Origin: Pseudodesulfovibrio piezophilus C1TLV30
Lineage (GTDB): Bacteria > Desulfobacterota > Desulfovibrionia > Desulfovibrionales > Desulfovibrionaceae
Assembly: GCF_000341895.1 (NCBI RefSeq)
Contig: NC_020409.1
Coordinates: 3,452,411-3,484,410, forward strand
Reading direction: 5' to 3'
DNA: 32,000 nucleotides
Below are positions 6,350 to 29,695 of this stretch, in pieces. The notes beneath the pieces are model-generated. The model did no database searches, was not told the DNA's origin, and saw only the letters and a program-made list of their open reading frames with translations. A program made the position numbers and the translations under genes. The number at the start of each line of letters is the position of its first letter. The first letter of the stretch is position 1.

Positions 6350-7969
6350 TTACATAAAGTAGTACGTGGCGACCAGTCCCATAAGGGACATGGTAATAGT
6401 ATAAGGCAAAGCCAGGATAACCATCCGGCCGTAGGAAAGCCTGATAACCGGAGCTAGTGCTGAGGTCAGCAGGAACAGGAAGGCAGCCTGGCCGTTGGGA
6501 GTGGCGACGGAGGGGATATTGGTCCCTGTGTTGATGGCGACTGCGAGTTTGTCGAAGTGGGCCATGGTTTCCAGTATTTTTGTTTGAAGTGCCTGCGGCA
6601 TGGAAGCCACAACATCGATACGAGCCAGGTGGGGATCTGTAAGTCGGTCCATGAGTGCGACGCCATCAGTTACACCGGGCATTCCAGCCAGGACAGACTC
6701 AAAGTGCATCTTGGTTTCTGATATGTAGACTGTCGCTACGAAGACGTTATCGGAGATCATGGAGAGGACTCCATTGGCAACGTAATACGCGGCAAGCTGG
6801 GCATGTCCATGCATGCCAAGGACTATATCCATGACAGGGGCAAAGAGGTGCTGGTCATGAATAACACCGACAATGGCGAAGAAAACAACGAGCAGGGCAG
6901 TGAAGGGCAGTGCCTCTTCGAATGCCGGGCCAAGTTGGTGCTCATCCGTGAACCCGTTCATTGAAGTCAGCAAGACAATAACTGAGAGACCAATGATCCC
7001 AACTGCGGCAAGGTGGAAGGCCAAAGCAAGAATCAGCCAGATACCGATTAACGCCTGGACGACAAGCTTGGCTTTTCCTTGAAGGCCGCGCTTTTCTTCC
7101 ATCTCAATGGCTGTTTCCAGGAGGTGGGAACGGATATTCCCAGGCATTTCTGCGCCGTAACCGAAGATTTTGAATTTTTCCACGAGGATGCAGGTCAGCA
7201 GCCCTGTTGCGAGTACCGGCATGGAAACCGGAGCCACTTGCAGGAAGAAGGGAATGAAGTGCCAACCCATTTCCGAGCCGATGAGAAGGTTCTGGGGTTC
7301 ACCGACAATGGTACACACTCCACCAAGGGCGGTGCCGACAGCACCGTGCATCATCAGGTTGCGCAAAAAAGCCCGAAACTCTGAAAGTTCGGCCCGTTGA
7401 GTATCTTTGACCGACTGATCCGAGCACAGATCATGTGTGCAACTCATGGTTTTACCAGAGGCAAAGCGGTGATAGACGTTATAAAATCCATAAGCTACCG
7501 CGATAATGACCGCTGTGACTGTCAGGGCATCGAGAAAAGCGGAAAGGAATGCGCCTGCAAAGCTGAACAGCAGTGAAATGACGATTTTCGAACGGACTTT
7601 GGTCAGGATGCGGGTGAAGGTGAATTGCAGGAAATCCTTCATGAAATAGATACCTGCAACCATGAAGATCAATAAGAGTATGACTTCAAAGTTCGCGTGC
7701 GCTTCATGGTAGACTGTCTCGGGGTGCGTCAGTCCGAGCAAAACAGCTTCCATGGCGAGTAATCCACCAGCAGGAAGCGGATAGCATTTCAATGCCATGG
7801 CCAGTGTGAATATGAACTCACCAATCAGTATCCATCCTGCGATGAAAGGGCCGACTGTAAAGATCAGAATCGGGTTAAGAACAAGAAAGGCCAGTATCGC
7901 CAGTTTGTACCAGTTCGGCGCATTGCCGAGGAAGTTACGGCTGAAGGCCTGTGTCATGGTTTGAGCCAT
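6350..7969 (-). CDS. nhaB: Na+/H+ antiporter NhaB
   Basis: The N-terminus ..[50 protein letters not shown] and the later [11 protein letters not shown] segment match my recollection of E. coli NhaB. Size is about 540 aa with many TM segments. SD GAGGAG upstream. Confidence 0.9.
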
Positions 7970-8023: not shown

Positions 8024-9454
8024 CTATTCGCCGATTGTCATTGTCGGATACATGCCCGCATCTGCCCCGCCTTGAAATGGCTGGAGTATATTGAAGCAAG
8101 CATCCTGGGTTTTTTGGGCATGTCCTCGGGTTTCTTCGGTTCCGTCGAAATTGGCTCCGTTTTCTTCCCGAATATGGGCAATACGATGTTTGAACGCTTC
8201 GACAAACGCTTTCCCATCACCCTTGAAGGTCATGTTACCGATGACTATATCAGTGGTTTTGGCGAGTGTCTCAAGGCTCATGCATTGATCTTTCAGGTCT
8301 GATTGTTTGGTTACATATCCCCATACCGCTGAATTCTCGGGTATCGTGATCGGTTCTTCTGCGTCAATGATAGTATGGGGCATCACGATCGAATCACGGC
8401 CGACCGTGATTGGGCAGGTCGCTGTGCCATGAACAAAGGAGTTGAATCCGACAAACACATTTGGAGCAAGCCGTGTGTGGATGACTTTGCCTCCATGAGC
8501 TGTGACATTAAAGCCTTCGTAAACCGCATTTTTGATATAGCAATTCTCTTGCGCGTTCGATCCCTTGCCGATGTCTGAATTTTCGACATGGGCGCGTTGG
8601 GCTATGAGTGAATTGTCCCCAATCTTGCAATCTCCTTTGATGACAGAGTATGGATTGACATAGGTCCCTTCTCCAACCTCAACTCCCATGAGTTCCGGTT
8701 GGACAGAGGAGTAAACCGGGACAAAATCTTCTTTGAATTCTTCAACATAGTCGATGAACTTTCCGGTGATTTTTCCGTTTTCGTCCATGCTGACATACTG
8801 CTCCACGACCCCTTCGGGGTAGACGTAGTTGAATTCGAAGAGTCCGTTTGATTTGATCCAGACCCTGCCGGATTCAATAGTCAGACGCGACAGGTCTCCA
8901 GCTTGAACATAGGAAAAATTGCCCACAACACAGTTGTGCATAATAGAGAGATCAATCGTGGAAAAGGGGCCTAGGTAAACTCCTTCACAGGTTGTACCAT
9001 GAATATTGGAAAAGTGCATGGCAAGAGTGTTTAGTATCTTGAAAACTTCTGGAGTTTCAGGGTTCTTGGAGTGGTTGTGGACGAGAGTCTTGATCAGGCA
9101 ACTATTGATGACCCGGATAACCTCATCGTAAAAGAGCGTGGTTTTGACTCCATTGAATTCGACCACGTCTCCCTTGCGTTTAAGCTCATCGCCGCGCAGA
9201 TCAGACTTATAGACAACGGAGCGGTCAACCTGCGTTTTACCGAGAAAATATGTACCGGCCATATTTGAATTCTGGAAACGAAAGCTGATCGGATGATCTT
9301 CCGTCAGCGCATAAAACGCATAGTATTGCAGATGCCGTTCACGTGGTATGGCATTGGTGAGAATCTGTTTTACATCTATCCCCATCGGTTTCAGATTTAC
9401 GTTGACCCGGGATGCGATATGATCAAACAAAGCTTCGAGTTTTTTCATTGTCAT
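8024..9454 (-). CDS. Uncharacterised 476-aa protein with hexapeptide / left-handed beta-helix repeats
   Basis: Runs of [LIV]-G-x-x-[STAV]-x periodicity (IGDNSLIAQRAHVENSDIGKGSNAQENCYI.., VGNFSYVQAGDLS). The large N- and C-terminal extensions match nothing I recognise. Confidence 0.55.
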   Translation of the reverse strand: MTMKKLEALFDHIASRVNVNLKPMGIDVKQILTNAIPRERHLQYYAFYALTEDHPISFRFQNSNMAGTYFLGKTQVDRSVVYKSDLRGDELKRKGDVVEFNGVKTTLFYDEVIRVINSCLIKTLVHNHSKNPETPEVFKILNTLAMHFSNIHGTTCEGVYLGPFSTIDLSIMHNCVVGNFSYVQAGDLSRLTIESGRVWIKSNGLFEFNYVYPEGVVEQYVSMDENGKITGKFIDYVEEFKEDFVPVYSSVQPELMGVEVGEGTYVNPYSVIKGDCKIGDNSLIAQRAHVENSDIGKGSNAQENCYIKNAVYEGFNVTAHGGKVIHTRLAPNVFVGFNSFVHGTATCPITVGRDSIVMPHTIIDAEEPITIPENSAVWGYVTKQSDLKDQCMSLETLAKTTDIVIGNMTFKGDGKAFVEAFKHRIAHIREENGANFDGTEETRGHAQKTQDACFNILQPFQGGADAGMYPTMTIGE

Positions 9455-9509
9455 CTACTCTATGTTGGAAGGTTCAAATGGAAGACAGCTGTTGCTTGTG
9501 AGCAAAACT

Positions 9510-9527
9510 GTTGCAATTTGTTACTCT
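9510..9527. repeat. Copy 1 of an 18-bp perfect direct repeat GTTGCAATTTGTTACTCT
   Basis: Identical 18-mer at 9814-9831. This copy lies 56 nt upstream of the LbH gene start. Confidence 0.9.
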
Positions 9528-9813
9528 GGCAACCTTGAGTTTGTGTCTTGTGGTAGAATCAGACAATATGCTTGATTCAGAAATCATCCTAAGCCACTAA
9601 AAAATAACCTTTATCTTTGTATGAAGAATCGTTTGAGAGTCTTCTTTGCGTGCTGATACTCTTCTGTATGAAAGAACAAACCAATTTCACTTGTACAGTT
9701 TTGAATGCTCTTATGAGGCCGTTGAGAGTGTTATTGCGAGGCTCCAGAGTGTTGTTTTCTGAGAGCAGTAAGATCGAGGACCAGTAAAAAATGAGTCATT
9801 TCAGGGAATGAAC

Positions 9814-9831
9814 GTTGCAATTTGTTACTCT
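9814..9831. repeat. Copy 2 of the 18-bp perfect direct repeat GTTGCAATTTGTTACTCT
   Basis: Identical to 9510-9527. This copy lies 17 nt downstream of the DASS transporter stop. Confidence 0.9.
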
Positions 9832-9847
9832 AGTCCTTTCGGCTCGT

Positions 9848-11323
9848 CTACCCCCCTATGGGGACCGTTATGGGCATACCCATCATTGGCCAGATAACCA
9901 GGACTGCGATGCCGACGATAATCATCAGAAGCAAAGATGCAGGAATGCCCCATCCGAAGAATTCTCCGGTCGTGAATTGGCCGGAATCATAGGCAATTGC
10001 ATTGGGAGCGGCTCCAACAAGGAGCATGAATGGCATACCGGCTACGACGAGTGATGCGTAAAGGATGACTTCGGGAGACACGCCAAGGTACGGAGCAATA
10101 ACCAGGGCCACGGGAAGAGAGATAGCTATTGCCGCAACATTCATGATGAAATTCGTCATCATCATGACGAAAAACGCGATGGACATGACGAAGATGAACC
10201 AATGTGCATCTTGAAACATGACAAGCCAGTTGACCGCCATCCACTTGGCAGCTCCGGTTTCCCAGAGGCAGAAGCCGATAGACATGGCTCCGGCAAAAAG
10301 CAGAATTATATTCCAGGGAATATCTTCCAGATCTTTGAGGTCCAGTATCTTGAAGATGAAGAAGAGGACCGATGAACAGAGGATTATCGCCGTTTTATCA
10401 ACCGCTTTGAGTGCAGGAACAAACGCTCGAAGTGACATGATAATAATCACGGTTCCAACGATGACGGCAGCCATTATTTCCTCTCGGGTCAAGCTTCCCA
10501 TTCTGGCATTGAGCTCACGAGCTTTTTCGCGCAGTCCCGGTATGCGATCCTTTTCCGGTTTGCAGACAAGCATGAAAAATCCCCAGAGCAGAAAAGTCAT
10601 TCCCCATCCTATAGGGGCCATGTAATAGGAGAGTTCAAAGAACCCGATGTCAACATTGATGATCTCCTTGTAAAATCCAATGGCGACAGCGCCGCGAGCT
10701 GCGCCGAGCAACGTGACAATTGATCCTGCCCCGGCCACATAGGCCATGCCGATGAAAAGGCCTTTGCCGAACTTGGTCGGCTTGTTGCCTTCGCCGTAAA
10801 GGGCGTAGATGGCCAGCAGTAAAGGATAAATCGTGGCTGCAACAGCGGTATGGGCCATGATGTGTGTCAGTGCTGCGGTTACCACGAAGACACCGAGGTA
10901 GATCATTGATGTGCGTTCGCCCACGATATCAAGCATCTTGTAAGCGAGACGTTTTGTCAGTCCTGTCTTGGTGAAGACGAGGCCGATCATGATCGAAGCA
11001 AATATGAACAGAACTGACGGGTCCATGAAGTCTTTGAAGGCGACCTTGGCAGGACGGATCATGAACATGACCTGTAATATCCCGATCATAAGTGAGGTGA
11101 TACCAATAGGGACGACCTCAAAAACCCACCATGTTCCCGCAAGTAAAAAGACTCCAATGGCCCCTTTTGCTTCTCTGGAGAGGATAAAGTGTTCACCCAT
11201 GGGGTCGACGGCATCGGGCCACGGTGGTGCATAATAGACAACTGCGAACAGAATGATGCCTGTGAGCATGAAAATCAGTCGTTTCCAGTCGAAAGCGGAT
11301 TTGGCGGCTTGAGCTGTTTCCAT
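9848..11323 (-). CDS. DASS/SLC13-family anion:Na+ symporter (CitT/SdcS-like permease)
   Basis: About 490 aa polytopic membrane protein with a typical DASS N-terminus (..REAKGAIGVFLLAGTWWVFEVVPIGITSL..). ATG at 11323 is preceded by SD GAGGAG; the longer ORF-track start at 11434 was rejected. Confidence 0.8.
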   Translation of the reverse strand: METAQAAKSAFDWKRLIFMLTGIILFAVVYYAPPWPDAVDPMGEHFILSREAKGAIGVFLLAGTWWVFEVVPIGITSLMIGILQVMFMIRPAKVAFKDFMDPSVLFIFASIMIGLVFTKTGLTKRLAYKMLDIVGERTSMIYLGVFVVTAALTHIMAHTAVAATIYPLLLAIYALYGEGNKPTKFGKGLFIGMAYVAGAGSIVTLLGAARGAVAIGFYKEIINVDIGFFELSYYMAPIGWGMTFLLWGFFMLVCKPEKDRIPGLREKARELNARMGSLTREEIMAAVIVGTVIIIMSLRAFVPALKAVDKTAIILCSSVLFFIFKILDLKDLEDIPWNIILLFAGAMSIGFCLWETGAAKWMAVNWLVMFQDAHWFIFVMSIAFFVMMMTNFIMNVAAIAISLPVALVIAPYLGVSPEVILYASLVVAGMPFMLLVGAAPNAIAYDSGQFTTGEFFGWGIPASLLLMIIVGIAVLVIWPMMGMPITVPIGG

Positions 11324-11351
11324 TGTCGTTCTCCTCAAAAAAAACGAAATA

Positions 11352-11870
11352 TTATTGACACGCGCAAGCCAGCATCCGCGACTTGACTTCATTGTAAATG
11401 TCACTGAGGCGCAGGACGCCGGAGATGTTGCCATTTTTTCTGACTATAAGCGGTTGGTGTTTGCCAACGATATAGCAGTGAATGCCGTATGCGAGGGTGT
11501 CGTCTTCATTGAGAAAATCGATTTCAGAGGGGATATGCATCACTTGGGATACTCCCTGTCTACAGCCCTCTTTGCAGAGTGTTTCAAGTGGATTTGCCCA
11601 GAGGCCAAACTCTTTGAAAGCGTCTGCAACATATTGTTTGGAAAGGGTGTCGGTTCCAAGTCCTTTTCCGGCCAGTCTTTTGTAGCTTGGTTCAAGAGCC
11701 GCCAGGATATCAGTCATGGTCAACACACCTGCGAAGTCGCCCTTGGTGTTAACTACAATCAAATCTCGATGTTGGCTCTCATCAAGAACAAGAATCGCCT
11801 GTCCAAGCGTGGCATCCTTGCCGATGGTGAGATATTCTTCGACAGGGATCATCAGGTCTTTCACTTTCAT
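11352..11870 (-). CDS. CBS-domain pair protein
   Basis: MKVKDLMIPVEEYLTI..VVNTKGDFAGVLTMTDIL and ..VRKNGNISGVLRLSDIY form two CBS motifs. SD GGGAGGA. It lies 28 nt upstream of the DASS gene, so co-transcription is likely. Confidence 0.8.
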   Translation of the reverse strand: MKVKDLMIPVEEYLTIGKDATLGQAILVLDESQHRDLIVVNTKGDFAGVLTMTDILAALEPSYKRLAGKGLGTDTLSKQYVADAFKEFGLWANPLETLCKEGCRQGVSQVMHIPSEIDFLNEDDTLAYGIHCYIVGKHQPLIVRKNGNISGVLRLSDIYNEVKSRMLACACQ

Positions 11871-12220
11871 GACAATATTCCTCCCATGGTAAAGCTGTAA
11901 GAGACAGTTTATCTACGAGTGAACGCTATGATTTCCTACAATGTATCCTGTTGTCCAAGAGGGATTCCTTGATGGTGCAGCACGCTGGTGCTTCTCCCGG
12001 ACTCGTGTCGTTTTTCAGGGAAATGGTGAGCTGCCGGTAGTTCATCCCCCCCCATTTGTCACCAGCTTTTGACCGGCTGGCTGCGATACATCAGAATTCT
12101 ATTGATAGAATATAGTTGAATGCGTCAAGAATATATCGTGAAAAAAAGAGCAAGTACGTTTTGAAACGTTATGAAACTATTTTATGGAACAAGACCGTTT
12201 CTTTGTGCAACACATTACGG

Positions 12221-12571
12221 TCATTTTGTTTCTTGGTAGTAATTTTGACCATGAGCTATTCTGCCACCCAGGTAAGCCTCAAGAACGATGTCGGCAGGAC
12301 CGCAGATGTCATCCACCACCCGAATGCCTTTCCATTCGAGAAAATCGAAAAATTCTTTTTCGATACCAGCACAAATGACTGTTTGGATACCTTCGCTGAC
12401 CGCTGCCCGGCACATCGATTCGGCTGAAGGATTTTCAATAGCGACATTTTTTTCCTCAACCCTGCCCATGGCACTGGTTTCCCGAATAATGGAGACAACA
12501 AGCACTTCTGCCGCGAGATCAAATCGTGGGGCAAGCTCTTTCCCCAGGAGAGGGATCAGTATCTTTTCCAT
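12221..12571 (-). CDS. NifX/NifB-C-terminal-like (dinitrogenase FeMo-cofactor-binding fold) small protein
   Basis: 116 aa. The pattern ..GKELAPRFDLAAEVLVV.. and ..GIQTVICAGI..FFDFLEWKGIRV is typical of the PF02579-type family as I recall it. It starts 8 nt after the regulator stop, with SD AGGTGA. Confidence 0.65.
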   Translation of the reverse strand: MEKILIPLLGKELAPRFDLAAEVLVVSIIRETSAMGRVEEKNVAIENPSAESMCRAAVSEGIQTVICAGIEKEFFDFLEWKGIRVVDDICGPADIVLEAYLGGRIAHGQNYYQETK

Positions 12572-12579
12572 ACATTCAC

Positions 12580-13980
12580 CTATTCAATTCCAAAGTGTTT
12601 CATCTTGCGCCATAGTGTTGAACGGCCCCAGCCGAGTAACTCTGCTGCCCGTCTTTTCTTGCCACCGGTTTTGACCAATGCATCCAGTATCATCTTTCTT
12701 TGAACGTCTTCCCAGCGTTCGGGGGGGATACTTCTGCTTCCTGCTTCTCCATTTGCATGATGTGAAGTCGATGGGGTTGTCGTCAAATCCTTCGGAAGGC
12801 CAGTGCCATGGAGCATGTACCCTGGGAGGTGGCGCATCCTTATGAGTTTACCATCGCAGAAGTTGACTGCATATTCGATGAGATTCTTCAATTCTCTGAC
12901 ATTGCCGGGATAGGCATAGGATTCGAGGAGTTTCTGTGCATTTTTCGAGAATCCTTCAACACTTTTGCCAAAACGGTTTTGAAACATTTTTAGAAAATGG
13001 TCCTGAAGAAGAAAGATATCATCTCCTCTTTCTCGCAAAGGAGGGAGGTGGAGTCTGATGACATTCAACCTGTAAAGAAGATCCTGGCGAAATTCCTTTT
13101 GCCTCACCAATTTATCAAGGTCGTACTGTGTCGCAGCCATGATACGAACATCCGTGCGCATCCCTTTTGCTGATCCAACAGGGTACACGACATGGTCATC
13201 CATGTACGAGAGAAGTTTGGTTTGTACTGATATGGGAAGGTCTCCAATCTCGGCGACGAAAAGGGTTCCCCCATGCGCCATTCGTAGGCGTCCGGGCTTG
13301 TCGTGATCAGCACCTGGAAGAGAGTGTTTGATATGACCGAAAAATTCGGATTCCAACAAAGTCGGGGGGAGTGCGCCGCAGTTTACCTTGATGAAAGGTC
13401 CGTCAGATCTTTCGGATTCATTATGAATCTCCTCGGCGAGCATATCCTTTCCAGTTCCTGTTTCCCCTGAGATGAGCACGGGCGAATCTGTCTGGGCAAT
13501 GGCGGGGGTCATGGAAAAAATCTTTCGGACCTGAGGGCTTCGTCCGACAAGTTCTCCCAATCCGAAGACACACCCTGAGGTTTCATCCAAGGGGTGAGGT
13601 GAGCCAGGAGTGATTGTTTCGACAATGCCGGTCATTTCTCCTTTCTCATCAATAATAGGACTGACCGTCAGGCTGACGAATATCCTCTCTCGGGCTCGGT
13701 TGATGAGATTGGCTTCAATTTTTTTCTCTGTATACCCGGACCAACCGCTCATGACAGGGCAGCCATTGACACAGTAATCACATCGAAGTGCGTGAAGACA
13801 TTGAAGCCCTTGGCTCTGTTTTTTATTGATTCCGGTGATTGTCTCGTACGCCTTGTTCACCAGACGCAAGGTTCCACGTGTATCCATCACGGCGACACCG
13901 ATGGGCAACTGGTCCATAATGGCAACGAGGCCTTTTTCATCGGTAATGGGTGGCATGAGAGTCGGGTCAGATAACAGCAT
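12580..13980 (-). CDS. PAS-domain AAA+ enhancer-binding-protein-family regulator with a Fis-type HTH; atypical (GAFTGA replaced by HSLPGA, Walker B DE replaced by AE)
   Basis: Walker A GETGTGKD. ESEFFGH. LYRLNVIRLHLPPLRERGDD. YAYPGNVRELKN. C-terminal HTH AAELLGWGRSTLWRKMK. N-terminal PAS with C-x5-C-x2-C-x3-CP. Confidence 0.85.
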   Translation of the reverse strand: MLLSDPTLMPPITDEKGLVAIMDQLPIGVAVMDTRGTLRLVNKAYETITGINKKQSQGLQCLHALRCDYCVNGCPVMSGWSGYTEKKIEANLINRARERIFVSLTVSPIIDEKGEMTGIVETITPGSPHPLDETSGCVFGLGELVGRSPQVRKIFSMTPAIAQTDSPVLISGETGTGKDMLAEEIHNESERSDGPFIKVNCGALPPTLLESEFFGHIKHSLPGADHDKPGRLRMAHGGTLFVAEIGDLPISVQTKLLSYMDDHVVYPVGSAKGMRTDVRIMAATQYDLDKLVRQKEFRQDLLYRLNVIRLHLPPLRERGDDIFLLQDHFLKMFQNRFGKSVEGFSKNAQKLLESYAYPGNVRELKNLIEYAVNFCDGKLIRMRHLPGYMLHGTGLPKDLTTTPSTSHHANGEAGSRSIPPERWEDVQRKMILDALVKTGGKKRRAAELLGWGRSTLWRKMKHFGIE

Positions 13981-14267
13981 GGTGGTTTATTTCCCTCAAA
14001 TCAATGTGTGTAAGGGGTTCCTTTCATGCTGTAATTTTGAACCGAATTGGAACGTTTTGGCAAGGCTAAGCTGGAAAATATAAGCAGGAAATATAAAACG
14101 GCATGGGAGAGATGATTTAAATTTTATTCATAGAGTGAATAAAAGGATTTTGGCAGAGGTAAAGATTTGTGTGTCCCGCTGAATTTGCATGGTGGCCATT
14201 CCGGAAAAAACATTCGCTCTCCATTATGTGGAGGATTGGTTTTGTCGAGCCAGGCGTGAGTGAGGAG

Positions 14268-15665
14268 TTAAAATTGAAAATAGATGAACGGTTTGTACCC
14301 ATCGGGGAAAAACATGGCCGAGACCCAGAGCAGGGTGAAGAGCAGTGTTGGGGAGTACCACTGTCTTTTTTGAGGGTATATCCATCGACGCCATAGTCCT
14401 TTGGACTCAAGTAGGTGCACAGCAAGGGTGCCCAAGAGAATGAAGAGGACAAAGGGATTTATCCATGAAATCCCTGCTTCAGGGATGAACATTTGTCGGA
14501 GCATGAGTTGGGCTGTGCCAAAACCGTCGCTTCGGAAAAGAACCCATCCAATGATGACAAAAAGCATTGTGAATATCCAACCTGCCAACTGAATATATCG
14601 AGAATCCACTTGAGGGCCATGGTGCATCCAGAGTCTGTTTTTGGCCAGAGCCAATCCATGCATGGCTCCCCAGGCGACAAAGGTCCAGGCTGCTCCATGC
14701 CAGAGTCCACAAAGAATCATTGAAAGAAGTAGATTGGCGTAGGTTCGGAGTGGGCTTTTCCAACTGCCGCCGAGAGGAATATACAGATAGTCCCGTACCC
14801 AGGATGACAGGGATATATGCCACCTTTTCCAGAATTCACGGGGGCTTCGGGCGAGGTAGGGAAAATTGAAATTTTCGCCGAGATCATATCCCAGAATTCG
14901 GGCTATTCCAATAGCCATGTCCGAGTAACCGGAAAAGTCGAAGTAGATTTGCATTGTATAAGCGAGAGCAGCCAGCCATGTCGTGATCGAGTCATAGGCT
15001 CCCGCATGGATGAAGACATTGTCTGAAAACATGGCCAGTCGATCTGCAATGAAGACTTTTTTGAATAAGCCATAAGTAAAAAGCTGAAATCCACAATAAA
15101 AATTCTCTTTTGTCAGTGCCTTGTATGATTTGAGTTGAGGGAGGAAATCGGAGGCGCGGACGATGGGACCTGCCACGAGTTGTGGGAAAAAACCGACGAA
15201 AAGCGCGAAATCAAGAAGGTTGTCGTGTTGTTTTATTTTCCCGCGATAAATATCAAGGGTATAACTGAGTGTTTGAAAAGTGTAGAATGAAATGCCTACG
15301 GGTAAGATTATATCCAATGAACTGGAGTGGAGGCCGATGGACTCTATCATCGGTTTGAACGAGTCTATAAAGAAGTTGTAGTATTTGAAGTAGCCAAGCA
15401 AGCCGAGGTTGACCGCCAGGCTGAGCCAGAGCCACCTTGTGCGATGTTGTTGTTTCGAGGTTGAAGCGATCTTTTTCCCCACGAAGAAATCGACGAGGGT
15501 GGAGAGCCATATCAATGAAAGGAAACGCCAGTCCCAATAAGCGTAAAAGTAATAGCTGGCGATCAGAAGCAGGGTTTTTCGTCCGGTGTGATGATTGCGT
15601 AAAGCTGTCAGTCCCAACAGGACAAAGACGAAGAACAGAATGAATTCAGGAGAGGAAAAGATCAC
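14268..15665 (-). CDS. MBOAT-family membrane O-acyltransferase (AlgI/DltB/PatA-like)
   Basis: The N-terminus (M)IFSSPEFILFFVFVLL, the conserved FWKRWHISLSSWVRDYLYIPLGG block and the ..WHGA.. histidine are typical of MBOAT. GTG start overlaps the upstream gene's stop (GTGA). Confidence 0.9.
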   Translation of the reverse strand: MIFSSPEFILFFVFVLLGLTALRNHHTGRKTLLLIASYYFYAYWDWRFLSLIWLSTLVDFFVGKKIASTSKQQHRTRWLWLSLAVNLGLLGYFKYYNFFIDSFKPMIESIGLHSSSLDIILPVGISFYTFQTLSYTLDIYRGKIKQHDNLLDFALFVGFFPQLVAGPIVRASDFLPQLKSYKALTKENFYCGFQLFTYGLFKKVFIADRLAMFSDNVFIHAGAYDSITTWLAALAYTMQIYFDFSGYSDMAIGIARILGYDLGENFNFPYLARSPREFWKRWHISLSSWVRDYLYIPLGGSWKSPLRTYANLLLSMILCGLWHGAAWTFVAWGAMHGLALAKNRLWMHHGPQVDSRYIQLAGWIFTMLFVIIGWVLFRSDGFGTAQLMLRQMFIPEAGISWINPFVLFILLGTLAVHLLESKGLWRRWIYPQKRQWYSPTLLFTLLWVSAMFFPDGYKPFIYFQF

Positions 15666-16717: not shown

Positions 16718-16888
16718 GGGTGGATCATCTGTTAATGGATTGAGAGACTCAGCATTTAGTTTGTATTTTCGTAACGTCCTAATAAACTTTTTGAAGTCAC
16801 TCAAGTCAATAAAAAAAGGCGGAATACAGGCTTGAGTGTGGGAGGGGATGTGCATGTTTTCTCACGATTGTCATGAAGGGTTTCTGGC

Positions 16889-17650
16889 ATGCATGTTGCT
16901 TTAACAAAAGAGACTTTTATGGAGCAGCAGTCAGGAACGATTGAGAAAATTGAGGGTGCGATGTTCGATCAAGAGGGTGTGTTGCTGGAGTTTTCACAAT
17001 GCGAGTATGCGGATATGGCTCGTTTGCAAGAAGTTCTTCGAAATAAAAGATATCAGGAAGATATTCCGGATGTCGTTATTTTTCTTGAACATACGGCATG
17101 TATCACAGTTGGCCGCAGCGGAGGATATGAGAATATACTCGCGGACAACGTTGCTTTGAAAAATAACGGGATAGCTGTTCATGAAACTCCCCGAGGGGGA
17201 AATATCACATATCATGGGCCGGGGCAGTTGGTTTGTTATCCGATTCTTTCATTGGAAGGAGAAAAACGGGATCTGCATCTCTATGCTCGCAATATGGAAG
17301 AGGTCATGATTCGCACAGTGGAGAGCTTTGGTATCCAAGCTGGGCGCAAACCCCAATACCCCGGAGTTTGGGTCGGGGAAAATAAGATCGGCGCAATGGG
17401 GATTGCTGTTCGAAAATGGACCACTATGCACGGTATCGCATTGAATGTATGTCCTGACCTGGACCATTTCTCCTTGATCGTGCCTTGTGGAATTGGTTCC
17501 CATGGTGTCACTTCCATGGCGGAAGTCCTGGGGTCTTCTATTGATATCAAGAGTGTTCGTAGTGAAATGCAAAGGCACTTTTCAGAAATTTTTGAAATCT
17601 CTCTCCATCCCGTTGAGTTGAAAGATCTTATTGAGGAGGAATCGTTGTGA
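16889..17650 (+). CDS. lipB: Lipoyl(octanoyl) transferase LipB
   Basis: VIFLEHTACITVGR.., RGGNITYHGPGQLVCYPIL, KIGAMGIAVRKWTTMHGIALNV. ATG 16919 is an alternative start. Confidence 0.9.
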   Translation: MHVALTKETFMEQQSGTIEKIEGAMFDQEGVLLEFSQCEYADMARLQEVLRNKRYQEDIPDVVIFLEHTACITVGRSGGYENILADNVALKNNGIAVHETPRGGNITYHGPGQLVCYPILSLEGEKRDLHLYARNMEEVMIRTVESFGIQAGRKPQYPGVWVGENKIGAMGIAVRKWTTMHGIALNVCPDLDHFSLIVPCGIGSHGVTSMAEVLGSSIDIKSVRSEMQRHFSEIFEISLHPVELKDLIEEESL

Positions 17651-19592: not shown

Positions 19593-19608
19593 TGGCACAC
19601 CGGGTGCA
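19593..19608 (+). promoter_or_regulatory. Sigma-54 (-24/-12) promoter of the butanediol dehydrogenase gene
   Basis: TGGCACaccggGTGCA has correct GG-N10-GC spacing and lies 77 nt upstream of the ATG at 19685. Confidence 0.7.
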
Positions 19609-20940: not shown

Positions 20941-23013
20941 CTAGATTTGGATACGGTGTCGTTCCATTTTTGCATACAGGGTATTGCGCCCGATTCCCAG
21001 AGCTTTAGCCGTTTTACTAATGTTGCACGCATGAAAATTCAATGCCTCACGGATTGCGTCTTCCTCTCTCTTTTTGAGTTGGAATTCTTTGCTTGAGTTC
21101 GTATGCTTTGTGTTGATTCGGTGTCGGGCTTTGTCCAGAATGTGATGCGGGAGATTCTCCTCCCGGAGCCATGCATCGGAGAGGTTATTGATTGCATATT
21201 CTATGCAATTGACGAGTTCTCGAACATTTCCTGGCCATGAGTACGCCATGAAGGTCTTCGCCACTTCAGGGAGCATTCCTTCACAATGAATGCCAAATTC
21301 CGTGCAAAGACGGTTCAGATGATATTCGGCCAGGAGGACAATGTCATTTCCTCGTTCATGAAGGGAAGGGAGGGTGATTCCAACCACATTCAGGCGATAA
21401 AACAGGTCCTCTCGAAATTGGTTTTGTCTCACAAGTTCACGCAGATTCTTGTTGGTTGCCGCAATGATTTTCACATCCACGGACTGTGGAGTTGTGCCGC
21501 CCACAGGGACAACGGTCCTTTCTTCCAGCGCCCTCAGGAGACTGACTTGTTGCGAAAGTGGCATTTCAGAAATCTCATCCAGAAACAGGACTCCTTTGTC
21601 TGCCTGTTGGAATTTCCCTATACGGCCTTTTCTGGATGCTCCTGTAAACGATCCCCCGCAATACCCGAAGAGTTCACTTTGCACCAACTCTTCAGGGAAC
21701 GCGCCGCAATTAATTGCAATGAAGGGGTGCTGGGATCGTGGTCCGGCTTGGTGTATGCCACGGGCGAAGAGCTCCTTTCCGGTCCCTGATTCTCCATACA
21801 GGAGAACGGTTGATGGCGTCTTTGCCGCTTTGGCAGCCTGAAGAATTGATTGAGACATGGATCGGCTTGAATACAATATATGCTCAAATCCTTCCGGGGT
21901 GGTTTCAGAGGGGGGGATTGTTTCGAAGCATTCCTTTTTGGCAGGGACTGCGAATTGATGCGTGGTTTGTTTTTCGCAAATACTGACGATGGTATCCAGA
22001 TGGGTGCCGGTGAGACTGAAAACATTCAAGGCTCGCACGAATAAATCCGGGTTTATCCGACAGGGGATGACCGTCGGTTCATGTACTGAGGCATTTTTCG
22101 TCTGAGCTATGAAATCATCGTAATGAAAAAATTCCTCGGCCTGGCGACCACGGAGTGTCCCCCATGGAGTTCCGATCAATGCCTCGGCTGCACTGTTGGC
22201 ACTGAGGATTTTGCCTGATTTATCCAAGGAAAGAATGCCCGTCATTACGGAGTTGAACATTGAAGAAAAGAGCGTTCCCAGCTGACCTTCCAGTTCCGAG
22301 CAATAGAGGCGGCAGAGATGCTGCTCCAAGGCCCGTGCCGCTTGAAGAACAAGGTTCAGATTCTTAGAGTGATCCATGTTTGAAGGACCGGAAATATCAA
22401 AACATCCCCATATGCTGCCGTGTGGGTCCAGAATTGGGGCTGCTGTACAGCTCCAACTGTGATGGCTACGGCAGAAATGTTCTTCACCGAAAACCTGCAT
22501 GGGACGTCCTGTTGCCAAGGCCGTCCCTATGGCATTGGTTCCCACGCTTTCTTCTGCCCAATTGGCTCCTGGGCCAAAGTTCAACTTGTCAGCCTGCCGC
22601 AGGGTCTTCAGATCACCGCATGTCCGGGCCACACGGCCTTTGGCATTCGTGAATGTCATGAGCATTCCTTTGCCGCGGATCGCTTCATATGCCGTATTTT
22701 CGACATCGCCACAGATCTTTCCCAGTGTTGAGGTAAACGGCTCCAACTCTGTCATAGGTTTGAAATCCCAGCAATTTCTCGGGCCAGGATCAATGCCCAT
22801 TTTTTTACACCTGCCCCAGGAATCGATGATGTTCTCGTTCAGGCAACTGAGGTTGACCTGTCTCCCTTCCACAAAACGTTTCCACTGAGAATAGTTGACC
22901 TGCGAACCTCGCTGGCCGCGCAGGGGAGACCATGGTGAATGGGATGAAGGGGTTGCCTCAATATGGGACGCGCTGATTTCGAAGCCGTCATCGTTTCTAA
23001 GGAGTAAATGCAT
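20941..23013 (-). CDS. acoR: AcoR-like sigma-54-dependent transcriptional activator (N-terminal GAF-like sensor, PAS, AAA+, Fis HTH)
   Basis: GESGTGKELFARGIH, GSFTGA (intact F-T), LFLDEISEM, FREDLFYRLNV, WPGNVRELVN, HTH NISKTAKALGIGRNTLYAKM. ATG 23013 has SD GGAG 8 nt upstream. It is divergent from the aco operon. Confidence 0.85.
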   Translation of the reverse strand: MHLLLRNDDGFEISASHIEATPSSHSPWSPLRGQRGSQVNYSQWKRFVEGRQVNLSCLNENIIDSWGRCKKMGIDPGPRNCWDFKPMTELEPFTSTLGKICGDVENTAYEAIRGKGMLMTFTNAKGRVARTCGDLKTLRQADKLNFGPGANWAEESVGTNAIGTALATGRPMQVFGEEHFCRSHHSWSCTAAPILDPHGSIWGCFDISGPSNMDHSKNLNLVLQAARALEQHLCRLYCSELEGQLGTLFSSMFNSVMTGILSLDKSGKILSANSAAEALIGTPWGTLRGRQAEEFFHYDDFIAQTKNASVHEPTVIPCRINPDLFVRALNVFSLTGTHLDTIVSICEKQTTHQFAVPAKKECFETIPPSETTPEGFEHILYSSRSMSQSILQAAKAAKTPSTVLLYGESGTGKELFARGIHQAGPRSQHPFIAINCGAFPEELVQSELFGYCGGSFTGASRKGRIGKFQQADKGVLFLDEISEMPLSQQVSLLRALEERTVVPVGGTTPQSVDVKIIAATNKNLRELVRQNQFREDLFYRLNVVGITLPSLHERGNDIVLLAEYHLNRLCTEFGIHCEGMLPEVAKTFMAYSWPGNVRELVNCIEYAINNLSDAWLREENLPHHILDKARHRINTKHTNSSKEFQLKKREEDAIREALNFHACNISKTAKALGIGRNTLYAKMERHRIQI

Positions 23014-23089
23014 TCTCGATCTCCAGTACAAAACGAAAAAGGTTATAGACAATATTAAGTCTCTGACTCATCACCGGAATCTCTGTCAA

Positions 23090-23263: not shown

Positions 23264-23279
23264 TGGCATAGCCATTGCT
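23264..23279 (+). promoter_or_regulatory. Sigma-54 (-24/-12) promoter of the aco operon
   Basis: TGGCATagccaTTGCT is a near-perfect match to TGGCAC-N5-TTGCW, 42 nt upstream of the ATG at 23321. Confidence 0.8.
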
Positions 23280-29608: not shown

Positions 29609-29695
29609 TGGTGCCGAAGAGAAGACTCGAACTTCCACGGGATTGCTCCCACTAGACCCTGAACCTAGCGTGTCTACCAATTCCACCACTTCGGC
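29609..29695 (-). tRNA. tRNA-Leu (anticodon CAG), class II with a long variable arm and encoded CCA
   Basis: The minus strand reads GCCGAAG-TG-GTGGAATTGGTAGACAC-G-CTAGG-TTCAGGG-TCTAG-TGGGAGCAATCCCGT-GGAAG-TTCGAGT-CTTCT-CTTCGGC-A-CCA. Acceptor, anticodon and T arms all pair. Confidence 0.9.

Follow-up and report, generated by a model that had tools for sequence, protein, structure and literature searches.

The regulator gene of a 32,000-nucleotide stretch of Pseudodesulfovibrio piezophilus C1TLV30 (NC_020409.1, positions 3,452,411 to 3,484,410; hereafter the window) encodes an enhancer-binding protein (EBP) with an EBP-type AAA+ domain in which the GAFTGA loop is disrupted, and the best reading places it among the "atypical" sigma-54-independent EBPs as a new member. 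By comparison with related loci, it is probably a DVU2960-family regulator of the one-component type, in whose lineage sigma-54 working was abandoned and which would now exert sigma-70 control over an operon of a CBS-domain gene and a DASS-family transporter gene (probability about 0.7).

Domain architecture and substituted motifs of the regulator

A profile search assigned the order PAS, AAA+ of the sigma-54 activator type, AAA lid, and Fis-type HTH to the regulator (matches to PAS, PF00158 Sigma54_activat, AAA_lid_14, and HTH_8; Table 1). The database copy (P0001) has 458 amino acids, which implies Met9 (nt 13956) as start. The initial annotation had aligned the protein to NtrC/PspF. Its EBP-type AAA+ domain matches PF00158 over nearly the whole model, but the protein is not NtrC/PspF-like in general: its family is that of DVU2960, and its PAS domain is Cys-rich like that of OrpR. 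The motifs that had been called intact are so: Walker A (GETGTGKD), the Arg-finger region (FRQDLLYRLNV), and the HTH, and the Asn switch (VNCGALP) is intact, too. With its Walker A, Arg fingers, and sensor II, the regulator has the PF00158-type AAA+ domain of a canonical EBP.

Table 1. Features of the regulator gene, the box/core block, and the downstream cluster in the window.
Feature	Position	Strand	Remarks
Regulator gene	12580..13980	minus	466 aa as mechanical ORF
PAS domain	aa 19-123; 13612..13926	minus	PF00989 7e-07; also PAS_8, PAS_4, PAS_9
Cys-rich motif CLHALRCDYCVNGCP in PAS	13756..13800	minus	C61, C67, C70, C74
AAA+ sigma-54 interaction-type domain	aa 144-310; 13051..13551	minus	PF00158 1e-58, model positions 1-167 of 168
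Walker A GETGTGKD	13444..13467	minus	Intact; invariant in 120/121 aligned sequences
L1 loop HSLPGA in GAFTGA position	13309..13326	minus	G to H, A to S, F to L, T to P
Walker B region GGTLFVAEIGD	13240..13272	minus	Ala243 (13252-13254) and Glu244 (13249-13251) versus canonical Asp-Glu
Arg-finger region FRQDLLYRLNV	13060..13092	minus	Conserved
Sensor II region YAYPGNVRELKN	12883..12918	minus	Conserved; PGNVRELKN intact
Fis-type HTH	aa 424-462; 12595..12711	minus	Recognition helix LLGWGRSTLWRKMKHF as in DVU2960, unlike that of OrpR
NifX-like small gene	12221..12571	minus	116 aa, PF02579 Nitro_FeMo-Co; 8 nt downstream of regulator gene, co-directional
Box A GTTGCACAAAGAAAC, presumed regulator-binding region	12197..12211	minus	GTTTCA-N4-GAAAC in most orthologous loci
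Two GTTTCA boxes, box B counterpart	12162..12177 (12177..12172, 12167..12162)	minus	Box B invariant in Pro-loop alignment
TTTTCAC ending T-tract	12138..12144	minus	Conserved just upstream of -35-like hexamer in Pro-loop loci
Sigma-70-like core, putative promoter	12102..12128	minus	TTGACG (12128..12123), 15-nt spacer, TATCAA (12107..12102), then TAG
CBS-domain gene	11352..11870	minus	First gene of presumed target operon
DASS-family anion:Na+ symporter gene	9848..11434	minus	81-90% identity across loci
Hexapeptide-repeat protein gene	8024..9454	minus	476 aa; conserved cluster member
NhaB Na+/H+ antiporter gene	6350..7969	minus	After cluster in Pseudodesulfovibrio-type loci

Both substitutions that had been reported for the AAA+ domain were confirmed. 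The minus-strand codons cac tct ctt cca ggt gct (13326..13309) read HSLPGA, and gcc gag (13254..13249) read Ala-Glu. Aligned by phmmer without gaps to the solved NtrC1 (4l4u, 1ny6) and ZraR (1ojl) structures, the regulator has HSLPGA exactly opposite GAFTGA and FVAEIG opposite FLDEIG; neither a canonical GAFTGA nor any second GAFTGA-like string occurs elsewhere in the whole regulator protein. A canonical EBP carries an L1 GAFTGA with at least Phe/Tyr and Thr/Ser, and Asp-Glu in Walker B; the regulator has neither.

The L1 change and the loss of the Walker B Asp have separate histories. Asp-Glu was found in 133 of 155 motif matches from 150 diverse EBP representatives. Throughout the regulator's family Walker B lacks the Asp and reads Thr/Ser/Ala-Glu, mostly Thr-Glu among the approximately 235 homologues, GAFTGA members included, and Thr-Glu is the ancestral state. 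As GAFTGA members beside sigma-54 promoters also lack the Asp, its absence alone is no argument for sigma-54 independence. The initial annotation had listed the loop and Walker B changes together, but they are not one event: the loop change is clade-specific, whereas the Asp is missing family-wide.

Conservation and selection in the Pro-loop clade

The loop substitution is no chance event of one sequence. A survey of orthologues yielded 40 homologues (63-76% identity) with a loop of the form x-A-[L/F]-P-G-A, in which the Pro is invariant, as is the Pro-Gly pair across the clade; HSLPGA and Ala-Glu, as they occur in the window, are the clade's most derived versions. In a neighbour-joining tree, these Pro-loop sequences form one clade of Pseudodesulfovibrio-type sequences nested among GAFTGA sequences. 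The open reading frames are intact in all 40 diverged sequences, and dN/dS of the closest Pro-loop pair was 0.066 overall and 0.033 in the AAA+ domain, indicating continuing purifying selection; the ratio is usable for closest pairs only and saturated for more distant ones. Such strong constraint on the AAA+ domain is also compatible with continuing remodelling at distant sigma-54 promoters.

The Pro-loop clade retains Walker A, the Asn switch, the Arg fingers, sensor II, and the HTH in conserved form. Clade-specific divergence is concentrated at L1 (amino acids 207, 221, 222), the Walker B flank (242, 250), the L2 helix (259, 260, 263), and sensor I (280, 285, 286, 291). In PspF and NtrC1, L1, the Walker B flank, L2, and sensor I are the parts that serve sigma-54 engagement and its coupling to hydrolysis.

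Gene neighbourhood and orthology of the two loop types

The order regulator, NifX-like gene, CBS gene, DASS transporter gene, and hexapeptide protein gene was the same in all 25 loci compared (13 GAFTGA and 12 Pro-loop), and the pair of NifX-like gene and regulator also occurs in a more distant locus (L025). Fifteen of the loci came from a genome scan with a single peptide pattern, each from a different genome; named genomes such as P. profundus were added via contigs encoding homologues, outside that scan. The shared gene order, together with the separate genome of each of the 15 scanned loci, identifies the two loop types as orthologues. Paralogy of the two types was ruled out by the identical synteny with one locus per genome in these 15 loci. 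The true start of the DASS symporter is probably Met38 (nt 11323). An Rfam scan of the window gave no match in the leader, the sole match being a tRNA at 29612-29695.

Loss of the -24/-12 promoter and receiver gene

The GAFTGA loci carry a strong -24/-12 promoter at a conserved position between the NifX-like and CBS genes: TGGCAC/T-N5-TTGCC was present in 12 of 13, at 8-10 of 11 consensus positions and 125-166 nt past the NifX-like stop codon, and the thirteenth locus shows a GT variant where the alignment places this site. A receiver gene (PF00072) follows approximately 65 nt downstream of the site. Both promoter and receiver gene are absent between the NifX-like and CBS genes in 12/12 Pro-loop loci. 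No conserved -24/-12 site was found anywhere in the cluster of these 12 loci, where three scattered, non-conserved matches (9/11 positions) lie inside genes. In the window, no match with up to one mismatch occurs from 9400 to 14300 on either strand, in agreement with the earlier statement that a convincing -24/-12 promoter is missing nearby. Neither the window cluster nor any of the other 11 Pro-loop loci contains the cognate -24/-12 promoter that a canonical EBP has downstream of its binding sites. The suggestion that the regulator may act without sigma-54 gains support from this distribution, with the promoter lost in 12/12 Pro-loop loci versus carried by 12/13 GAFTGA loci. In L025, neither GTTTCA boxes nor a -24/-12 site was found in the region read.

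Elsewhere in the window, the aco E2 gene has a perfect sigma-54-type promoter (TGGCAT-N5-TTGCT) 36 nt ahead of it, beside the gene of an AcoR-like protein (20941..23052, minus strand) that keeps GSFTGA (aa 467) and LFLDEI (aa 489). The retention of both motifs by this protein had been noted before, as had the view that the altered loop is no genome-wide quirk; the promoter still present beside the AcoR-like gene fits that view.

GTTTCA boxes and a sigma-70-like core

In most loci of both loop types, GTTTC/GAAAC boxes lie near +20/+30 and +63 from the NifX-like stop codon; box A of the window reads GTTGCA rather than GTTTCA. In the Pro-loop loci the boxes are followed by TTTTCAC-N8-10-TTGAC[G/C]-N15-TAT.TA, with TTGAC in 12/12 loci and a conserved spacing of 37-42 nt from box B to the -35-like hexamer. 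At the corresponding place TTGAC is missing in 13/13 GAFTGA loci, two of which have it elsewhere in the first 200 nt. The box/core block of the Pro-loop loci contains 30 invariant columns of 113, versus 2 of 169 in the downstream leader. From this pattern we infer that the TTGACG-N15-TAT.TA block is a sigma-70 promoter. With a 15-nt spacer its -10 candidates are TATCAA, TATCTA, or TATGTA, and other candidates lie at 17-19 nt; they are non-consensus and miss the A2/T6 rule, and a strict scan of the window for consensus promoters passed over the conserved TTGACG block.

Comparison with known enhancer-binding proteins

The closest named relative of the regulator is DVU2960 of Desulfovibrio (Nitratidesulfovibrio) vulgaris Hildenborough, an EBP with a GAFPGA loop and unknown regulon (Kazakov et al. 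2015, PMC4641369), rather than OrpR. The DVU2960 family was defined in this analysis from the published DVU2960 DNA-binding domain; its recognition helix LGWGRSTLWRKMK and its combination of a Cys-rich PAS domain with an Asp-less Walker B (Thr/Ser/Ala-Glu) are both found in the regulator. DVU2960 itself resembles the regulator in the recognition helix GWGRSTLWRKMK and the PAS motif Cys-x8-Cys-x3-Cys-Pro, but differs in having lost the Asn switch (VKASLSSLP) and in its location within the sigma-54 operon DVU2957-2967, which also encodes a TSUP transporter, a histidine kinase, and receivers. This operon context is not present at the window locus and was found in L025. Given its CBS-DASS-hexapeptide-NhaB context, which is not that of DVU2960, the window protein represents a separate orthologous group within the family.

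Protein P0290, whose DNA-binding domain is identical to that published for DVU2960, has 43% full-length identity to the window protein, a GAFPGA loop, and a Ser-Glu Walker B; thus, Thr-to-Pro and loss of the Walker B Asp occurred in both proteins. As they belong to different lineages, with many GAFTGA members carrying Thr-Glu between them, the Thr-to-Pro change is independent in each. A wider and more tentative reading, which we place slightly below even odds, is that DVU2960-type proteins are a non-canonical EBP lineage with a Walker B Thr since its origin, which would have shed sigma-54 coupling at least twice via the L1 Thr-to-Pro change, the conversion in Pseudodesulfovibrio being complete, with sigma-70 activation from beside the -35.

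OrpR (DVU2106) is a sigma-54 activator whose PAS redox sensor holds a [4Fe-4S] cluster with the ligands C52/C61/C65 (PMC8359166). The regulator shares the PAS, AAA+, HTH architecture and the nearby gene for a Nitro_FeMo-Co-type small protein, and the OrpR ligand spacing Cys-x8-Cys-x3-Cys equals that of its C61/C70/C74, with C67 as an extra Cys. The Cys-rich motif is invariant in the family alignment, the exception among the 40 Pro-loop sequences being a Ser at the second Cys in two; the regulator probably carries an Fe-S cluster there, the cluster itself being predicted. OrpR differs in its HTH and in its demonstrated sigma-54 dependence. Its site GGGCGYRTTTTGCGCCC has no match in the window at up to three mismatches, and no orp operons flank the regulator gene. 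Orthology to OrpR, to which the Cys-rich PAS domain and the adjacent Nitro_FeMo-Co gene had pointed, was ruled out by the HTH and the missing site and operons.

Among EBPs without a functional GAFTGA, the NtrC proteins of R. capsulatus and Caulobacter act at sigma-70-type promoters (PMC10274813). The regulator's kept binding motifs and relaxed sensor I fit this precedent, its own sigma-70 use being predicted. In these NtrCs the L1 loop carries deletions, the input domain is a receiver, and the origin is old and order-wide, whereas the regulator shows point substitutions within one genus, a PAS input domain, and a sigma-54 state of the locus that is preserved in sister species. The other atypical EBPs are TyrR, PhhR, HupR, HsfA, NtrX, and VpsR of Vibrio cholerae (class defined in PMC6158489 and PMC10274813). 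Like the regulator, they have no GAFTGA and a non-consensus Walker B (Asn-Asp in VpsR); VpsR and TyrR act at sigma-70 promoters, VpsR binding just upstream of the -35 (PMC6158489). Unlike the regulator, VpsR needs c-di-GMP and no ATP and has other input domains, and none of the six has a Cys-rich PAS domain.

Proposed conversion and alternative explanations

In the ancestral state, a GAFTGA regulator would have bound GTTTCA boxes a short way past the NifX-like gene and activated a -24/-12 promoter driving the receiver gene and then the CBS, DASS-transporter, hexapeptide-protein, and NhaB genes. The presumed ancestral arrangement (GAFTGA, -24/-12 promoter, receiver) still exists in sister Pseudodesulfovibrio and Desulfovibrio genomes. 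On the branch to the Pro-loop clade, the L1 Thr would have become Pro and later the Phe Leu, with HSLPGA in the window genome; approximately 300 nt, comprising spacer, sigma-54 promoter, and receiver gene, would have been lost, and the sigma-70-like TTGACG / TAT.TA core brought directly beside the retained boxes. Loop change and promoter swap coincide in one clade, so this coincidence counts as one evolutionary event (statistically n = 1).

We propose that the regulator still binds ATP and oligomerises, since it has retained Walker A, the Arg fingers, and sensor II, and that it still binds the same DNA boxes, since the recognition helix is identical. Today, sigma-70 RNA polymerase at the CBS-DASS operon promoter would be controlled from sites just upstream of the -35, with a redox input via the PAS domain. 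We infer box binding, sigma-70 use, the direction of regulation, and Fe-S sensing from sequence; the direction is most likely activation of a class I-like kind, although sequence cannot tell an activator from a repressor.

A sigma-54-independent repressor or anti-activator is rather unlikely; bound to the GTTTCA boxes and to the TTTTCAC next to the -35, it would obstruct RNA polymerase in the way NtrX acts on its own promoter. Such a role would accord with TTTTCAC as a third box-like element that ends 8-10 nt upstream of the -35-like hexamer, with repression by the atypical EBP NtrX (PMC6158489), and with repression of some sigma-70 promoters by Caulobacter NtrC. Activation is favored by three arguments, each of them weak: every box lies upstream of the -35 and none over the core promoter, activation is the ancestral role at the same boxes, and the conserved distance between box B and the -35 fits the face-of-helix contacts of an activator.

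Less likely still is a sigma-54-dependent activator that tolerates x-A-x-P-G-A and acts at -24/-12 promoters outside the cluster. The otherwise conserved AAA+ machinery, the purifying selection, and the use of sigma-54 promoters in the window genome would suit it, as would DVUA0100 of D. vulgaris, whose GVATGV loop is predicted still to work with sigma-54 (PMC4641369). Against it, the sole conserved sigma-54 promoter linked to the GAFTGA orthologues was deleted in all 12 Pro-loop loci while the boxes were kept, and L2 and sensor I have diverged, too. Changes at the same loop position abolish function in B. japonicum NifA (Thr to Pro, a result cited in PMC4641369) and in PspF, where T86A loses sigma-54 engagement and keeps ATPase activity; these are engineered loss-of-function alleles, whereas the regulator's Pro is fixed in a natural clade with a changed promoter. 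A decaying remnant, useless after the promoter swap and with eroding motifs, would fit the most derived character of HSLPGA, Ala-Glu, and the GTTGCA of box A in the window, but this pseudogene reading is highly improbable and was discarded on account of the closest-pair dN/dS (0.03-0.07) with intact reading frames, the invariant loop Pro-Gly, the almost unchanged Walker A, HTH helix, and PAS cysteines, and the conserved binding boxes.

Significance

To our knowledge, the conversion of a sigma-54 activator into a sigma-70 EBP is not understood, the known cases being old, with no "before" state preserved. In the present case, one locus occurs in two states within one genus, one with GAFTGA, -24/-12 promoter, and receiver, the other with x-A-x-P-G-A and a sigma-70-like core. 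As boxes and recognition helix are the same in both, it can be tested directly which of the changes in loop, promoter, L2, and sensor I are needed. If the wider reading of the DVU2960-type proteins is true, this would be a natural sigma-54-to-sigma-70 rewiring that can be traced stepwise, both states surviving among sequenced sister genomes, of which at least one belongs to a cultured strain.

The analysis also offers a hypothesis for DVU2960, unexplained since 2015, and flags a whole EBP family without the Walker B Asp, most members of which still stand beside sigma-54 promoters. Speculatively, the operon of a DASS anion:Na+ symporter and NhaB may play a part in how marine sulfate reducers take up anions.

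L1 loop and Walker B motif of the regulator

Minus-strand reading and ungapped alignments with the solved structures of NtrC1 and ZraR placed HSLPGA opposite GAFTGA and FVAEIG opposite FLDEIG, as the initial annotation had claimed for the L1 loop and the Walker B Ala of the regulator. Walker A, the Arg fingers, and the HTH, which it had described as intact, were indeed so, as were sensor II and the Asn switch, and the AcoR-like protein of the window retains GSFTGA and LFLDEI as stated. The database copy of the regulator comprises 458 aa, implying a start at Met9; its PAS domain contains the Cys-bearing motif CLHALRCDYCVNGCP.

Features of the regulator (amino acid or window numbering) and of the region between the NifX-like and CBS genes
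Feature	Position	Strand	Remark
Regulator ORF	12580..13980	(-)	466 aa
PAS domain	aa 19-123		Pfam
Sigma54_activat	aa 144-310		Pfam, full-length, 1e-58
AAA_lid_14 + HTH_8			Pfam
L1 loop HSLPGA	13326..13309	(-)	read from minus-strand sequence
Walker B Ala-Glu	13254..13249	(-)	read from minus-strand sequence
Clade-specific sites, L1	aa 207, 221, 222
Clade-specific sites, Walker B flank	aa 242, 250
Clade-specific sites, helix leading into L2	aa 259, 260, 263
Clade-specific sites, sensor I	aa 280, 285, 286, 291
Box A	12211..12197
GTTTCA boxes	12177..12172 and 12167..12162
TTTTCAC	12144..12138
TTGACG	12128..12123
TATCAA	12107..12102

Separate histories of the two substitutions

The Walker B Asp was absent from all 120 best homologues, which mostly contained Thr-Glu and sometimes Ser-Glu or Ala-Glu. 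It was likewise missing from the homologues of a DVU2960-like protein, 102 of 115 combining GAFTGA with Thr-Glu. For comparison, 150 diverse EBP representatives yielded Asp-Glu in 133 of 155 motif hits, the remaining ones having mostly Thr, Ala, Ser, or Gly before Glu. Because the Asp is missing family-wide, GAFTGA members included, its loss is ancestral to the DVU2960 family and uncoupled from the loop change. Thr-Glu may support ATP hydrolysis, given that it occurs together with GAFTGA and -24/-12 promoters at 12 of 13 loci. Throughout the DVU2960-type family, Thr (sometimes Ser, Ala, or Gly) takes the place of the Asp, including in about 180 GAFTGA members. A Cys-rich PAS domain together with a GWGRSTLWRKMK-type helix was recurrent among the EBP representatives without the Walker B Asp.

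The loop motif x-A-[L/F]-P-G-A (Pro-loop) was found in 40 homologues with 63-76% identity to the query (NALPGA in 17, NAFPGA in 15, DAFPGA in three, and others), the Pro being invariant; the other 78 contained GAFTGA or GSFTGA. Neighbour-joining grouped the Pro-loop sequences into a single clade nested among GAFTGA sequences, with DAFPGA basal and HSLPGA of the window among the most derived. Judged from these sequences, the loop change is clade-specific, and a second, independent Thr-to-Pro change is apparent in the Nitratidesulfovibrio lineage. GAFPGA was accompanied by Thr-Glu in the homologous proteins P0284-P0289, by Ala-Glu in P0127, and by Ser-Glu in P0290 (DVU2960).

Family placement

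The regulator resembles OrpR (DVU2106), a redox-sensing sigma-54 activator of D. vulgaris, in three PAS cysteines spaced Cys-x8-Cys-x3-Cys like the OrpR [4Fe-4S] ligands (PMC8359166). Orthology to OrpR was rejected because flanking orp operons are missing, the OrpR site had no match across the window, and the published DVU2106 DNA-binding domain is unlike that of the regulator. The published DNA-binding domain of DVU2960 shares the recognition helix GWGRSTLWRKMK with the regulator (Additional file 2, PMC4641369). Since this helix is shared, and P0290, whose DNA-binding domain is identical to the published one of DVU2960, is 43% identical to the regulator over the full length, the regulator is assigned to the DVU2960 family, within a separate orthologous group. 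DVU2960 is an EBP with GAFPGA whose function was unclear in a 2015 study, where it failed to bind the DVU2957 promoter; no later paper mentioning it was found in the literature searched. The Desulfovermiculus halophilus locus L025:5511-11003 (JIAK01000010.1) encodes a family member with GAFTGA and Thr-Glu in the order TauE/TSUP transporter, AF_1016, regulator, NifX-like gene, histidine kinase, and receiver. This order of gene types is the one published for DVU2958-DVU2963, and the regulator/NifX-like pairing is kept beyond the orthologous group of the window.

Synteny of the loci

Twenty-four related loci were compared, 15 obtained by a scan of species-representative genomes and nine by exact protein look-up. 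They share with the window one gene order, in which the regulator is followed by a NifX-like gene (5-15 nt on), an intergenic region, CBS, a DASS transporter, and a hexapeptide protein, with NhaB next in Pseudodesulfovibrio-type loci. As the 15 genome-scan loci each derive from a different genome, the two loop types are taken to be orthologues.

The regulator (window 12580-13980) is merely 50-70% identical across loci in which the DASS transporter (9848-11323) is 81-90% identical; the latter is under much stronger constraint. The mechanical DASS ORF (9848-11434, (-), 528 aa) shares 83 nt with the CBS gene; since the orthologues comprise 487-498 aa, translation probably begins at Met38 (METAQ..., nt 11323). 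A perfect 18-nt direct repeat, GTTGCAATTTGTTACTCT (9510-9527 and 9814-9831, 304 nt apart), brackets the DASS-hexapeptide gap, which measures 393 nt in the window versus roughly 25-110 nt elsewhere, suggesting a genome-specific insertion or duplication. In sulfate reducers, DASS transporters count as candidates for sulfate carriage (PMC5840216); for the one in the window, such a role would be speculative.

Loss of the sigma-54 promoter

The interval between the NifX-like and CBS genes spanned 450-640 nt in 12 of the 13 GAFTGA loci, and TGGCAC/T-N5-TTGCC (8-10 of 11 consensus positions) occurred at an aligned place in 12 of 13, 125-166 nt past the stop codon of the NifX-like gene; at the corresponding position, the thirteenth locus shows CGGCAT-N5-TTGTT. 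By our own arithmetic, about 0.03 matches per 600 nt are expected by chance at ≥9 of 11 positions with fixed GG and GC. A stand-alone receiver gene (118-138 aa, PF00072) begins ~65 nt downstream of the element, and is the first gene after the sigma-54 promoter at loci L002, L005, L009 (NZ_CP182342.1; L009:11908-12279), L010, L012, L013, and L015.

In the Pro-loop loci, the same region measures 190-390 nt (688 nt in one with an insertion). None of the 12, the window and two basal DAFPGA loci included, contains the receiver gene there, and the best -24/-12 scores in this region were 0-7 of 11, at non-aligned places. The whole stretch from 600 nt ahead of the regulator to the cluster end contained no conserved -24/-12 element, and window 9400-14300 none with ≤1 mismatch, in line with the initial annotation, which had seen no convincing one near the regulator.

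Elsewhere in the window, a perfect -24/-12 site, TGGCATAGCCATTGCT (23264-23279, (+)), was found 36 nt ahead of aco E2 (23315), next to the AcoR-like gene and divergent from it; sigma-54 is thus in use in this genome. The -24/-12-type match TGGCACACCGGGTGCA (19593-19608, (+)) falls within the 5' end of a mechanical alcohol-dehydrogenase ORF (19502, TTG start), whose true start is probably downstream, with TGGCACACCGGGTGCA as its promoter. Another, TGGCATGCATGTTGCT (16885-16900, (+)), overlaps the ATG of a lipB-like ORF (16889). A tRNA gene (29612-29695, (-)) was the sole Rfam hit in the window.

A conserved block in place of the promoter

In most loci of both loop types, the region opens with GTTTC/GAAAC boxes, at about +20/+30 (GTTTCA-N4-GAAAC) and +63 from the NifX-like stop codon. 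In GAFTGA loci, a spacer of ~75 nt separates them from the -24 element, as is normal for enhancers. Directly after the boxes, Pro-loop loci have TTTTCAC, 8-10 nt, TTGAC[G/C], 15 nt, and TAT.TA. TTGAC[G/C] was present in 12 of 12 Pro-loop loci, whereas all 13 GAFTGA loci lacked TTGAC at the corresponding place (two have one elsewhere within the first 200 nt). The 113-column block contains 30 invariant columns versus 2 of 169 further down in the leader, and from this conservation it is predicted to be a sigma-70-type core; its -10 is non-consensus, and a strict promoter scan did not report it. At L018:7900-8440 (P. cashew, CP046400.1), a ~350-nt insertion with repeated GACTGGAAA units occupies the leader between the block and CBS.

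Selection and clade-specific sites

For the closest Pro-loop pair, dN/dS was 0.066 overall and 0.033 in the AAA+ domain; more distant pairs were saturated. Walker A was kept in 40 of 40 Pro-loop sequences, and the Asn switch, Arg fingers, sensor II, and recognition helix were conserved as in the GAFTGA group. Positions that are relaxed in this clade or fixed for other residues are concentrated at four places, namely L1, the Walker B flank, the helix leading into L2, and sensor I. In PspF and NtrC1, these places serve sigma-54 contact and the coupling of hydrolysis to it. The pattern fits a protein that would have kept nucleotide binding, oligomerisation, and the same DNA binding, and lost remodelling of the sigma-54 holoenzyme. 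PspF T86A keeps ATPase activity and does not engage the closed complex (PMC4132715), and NifA with Thr changed to Pro is inactive (PMC4641369); by analogy, Thr-to-Pro by itself should therefore abolish sigma-54 engagement.

Discussion

An accepted class of EBP homologues lacks a working GAFTGA and acts at sigma-70 promoters; it includes TyrR, PhhR, HupR, HsfA, NtrX, VpsR, and NtrC of R. capsulatus and Caulobacter. The regulator shares with this class an EBP-type AAA+ domain with a disrupted GAFTGA, would work in the same way, and is best classed as a putative new member of these atypical, sigma-54-independent EBPs. The initial annotation had read sigma-54-independent action from the protein; the comparison supports this, as Pro-loop loci lack the -24/-12 element that their GAFTGA orthologues have.

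The observed sequence states, synteny, promoter loss, and conserved boxes and block can be accommodated as follows. From family knowledge, the PAS cysteines would bind an Fe-S cluster and, like those of OrpR, signal the redox state; the HTH would bind the GTTTCA boxes, and assembly would be driven by ATP binding. From the geometry, the regulator would sit just upstream of -35 and act from there on sigma-70 RNA polymerase, activation being more likely than repression.

New with respect to the known class are the Cys-rich PAS as input domain, point substitutions rather than loop deletion as the mode of change, the within-genus timing, and the persistence of the ancestral form of the locus in sister genomes. 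The association of the loop change with the promoter swap reflects a single evolutionary event. The evolutionary record of the regulator is unusually clear.
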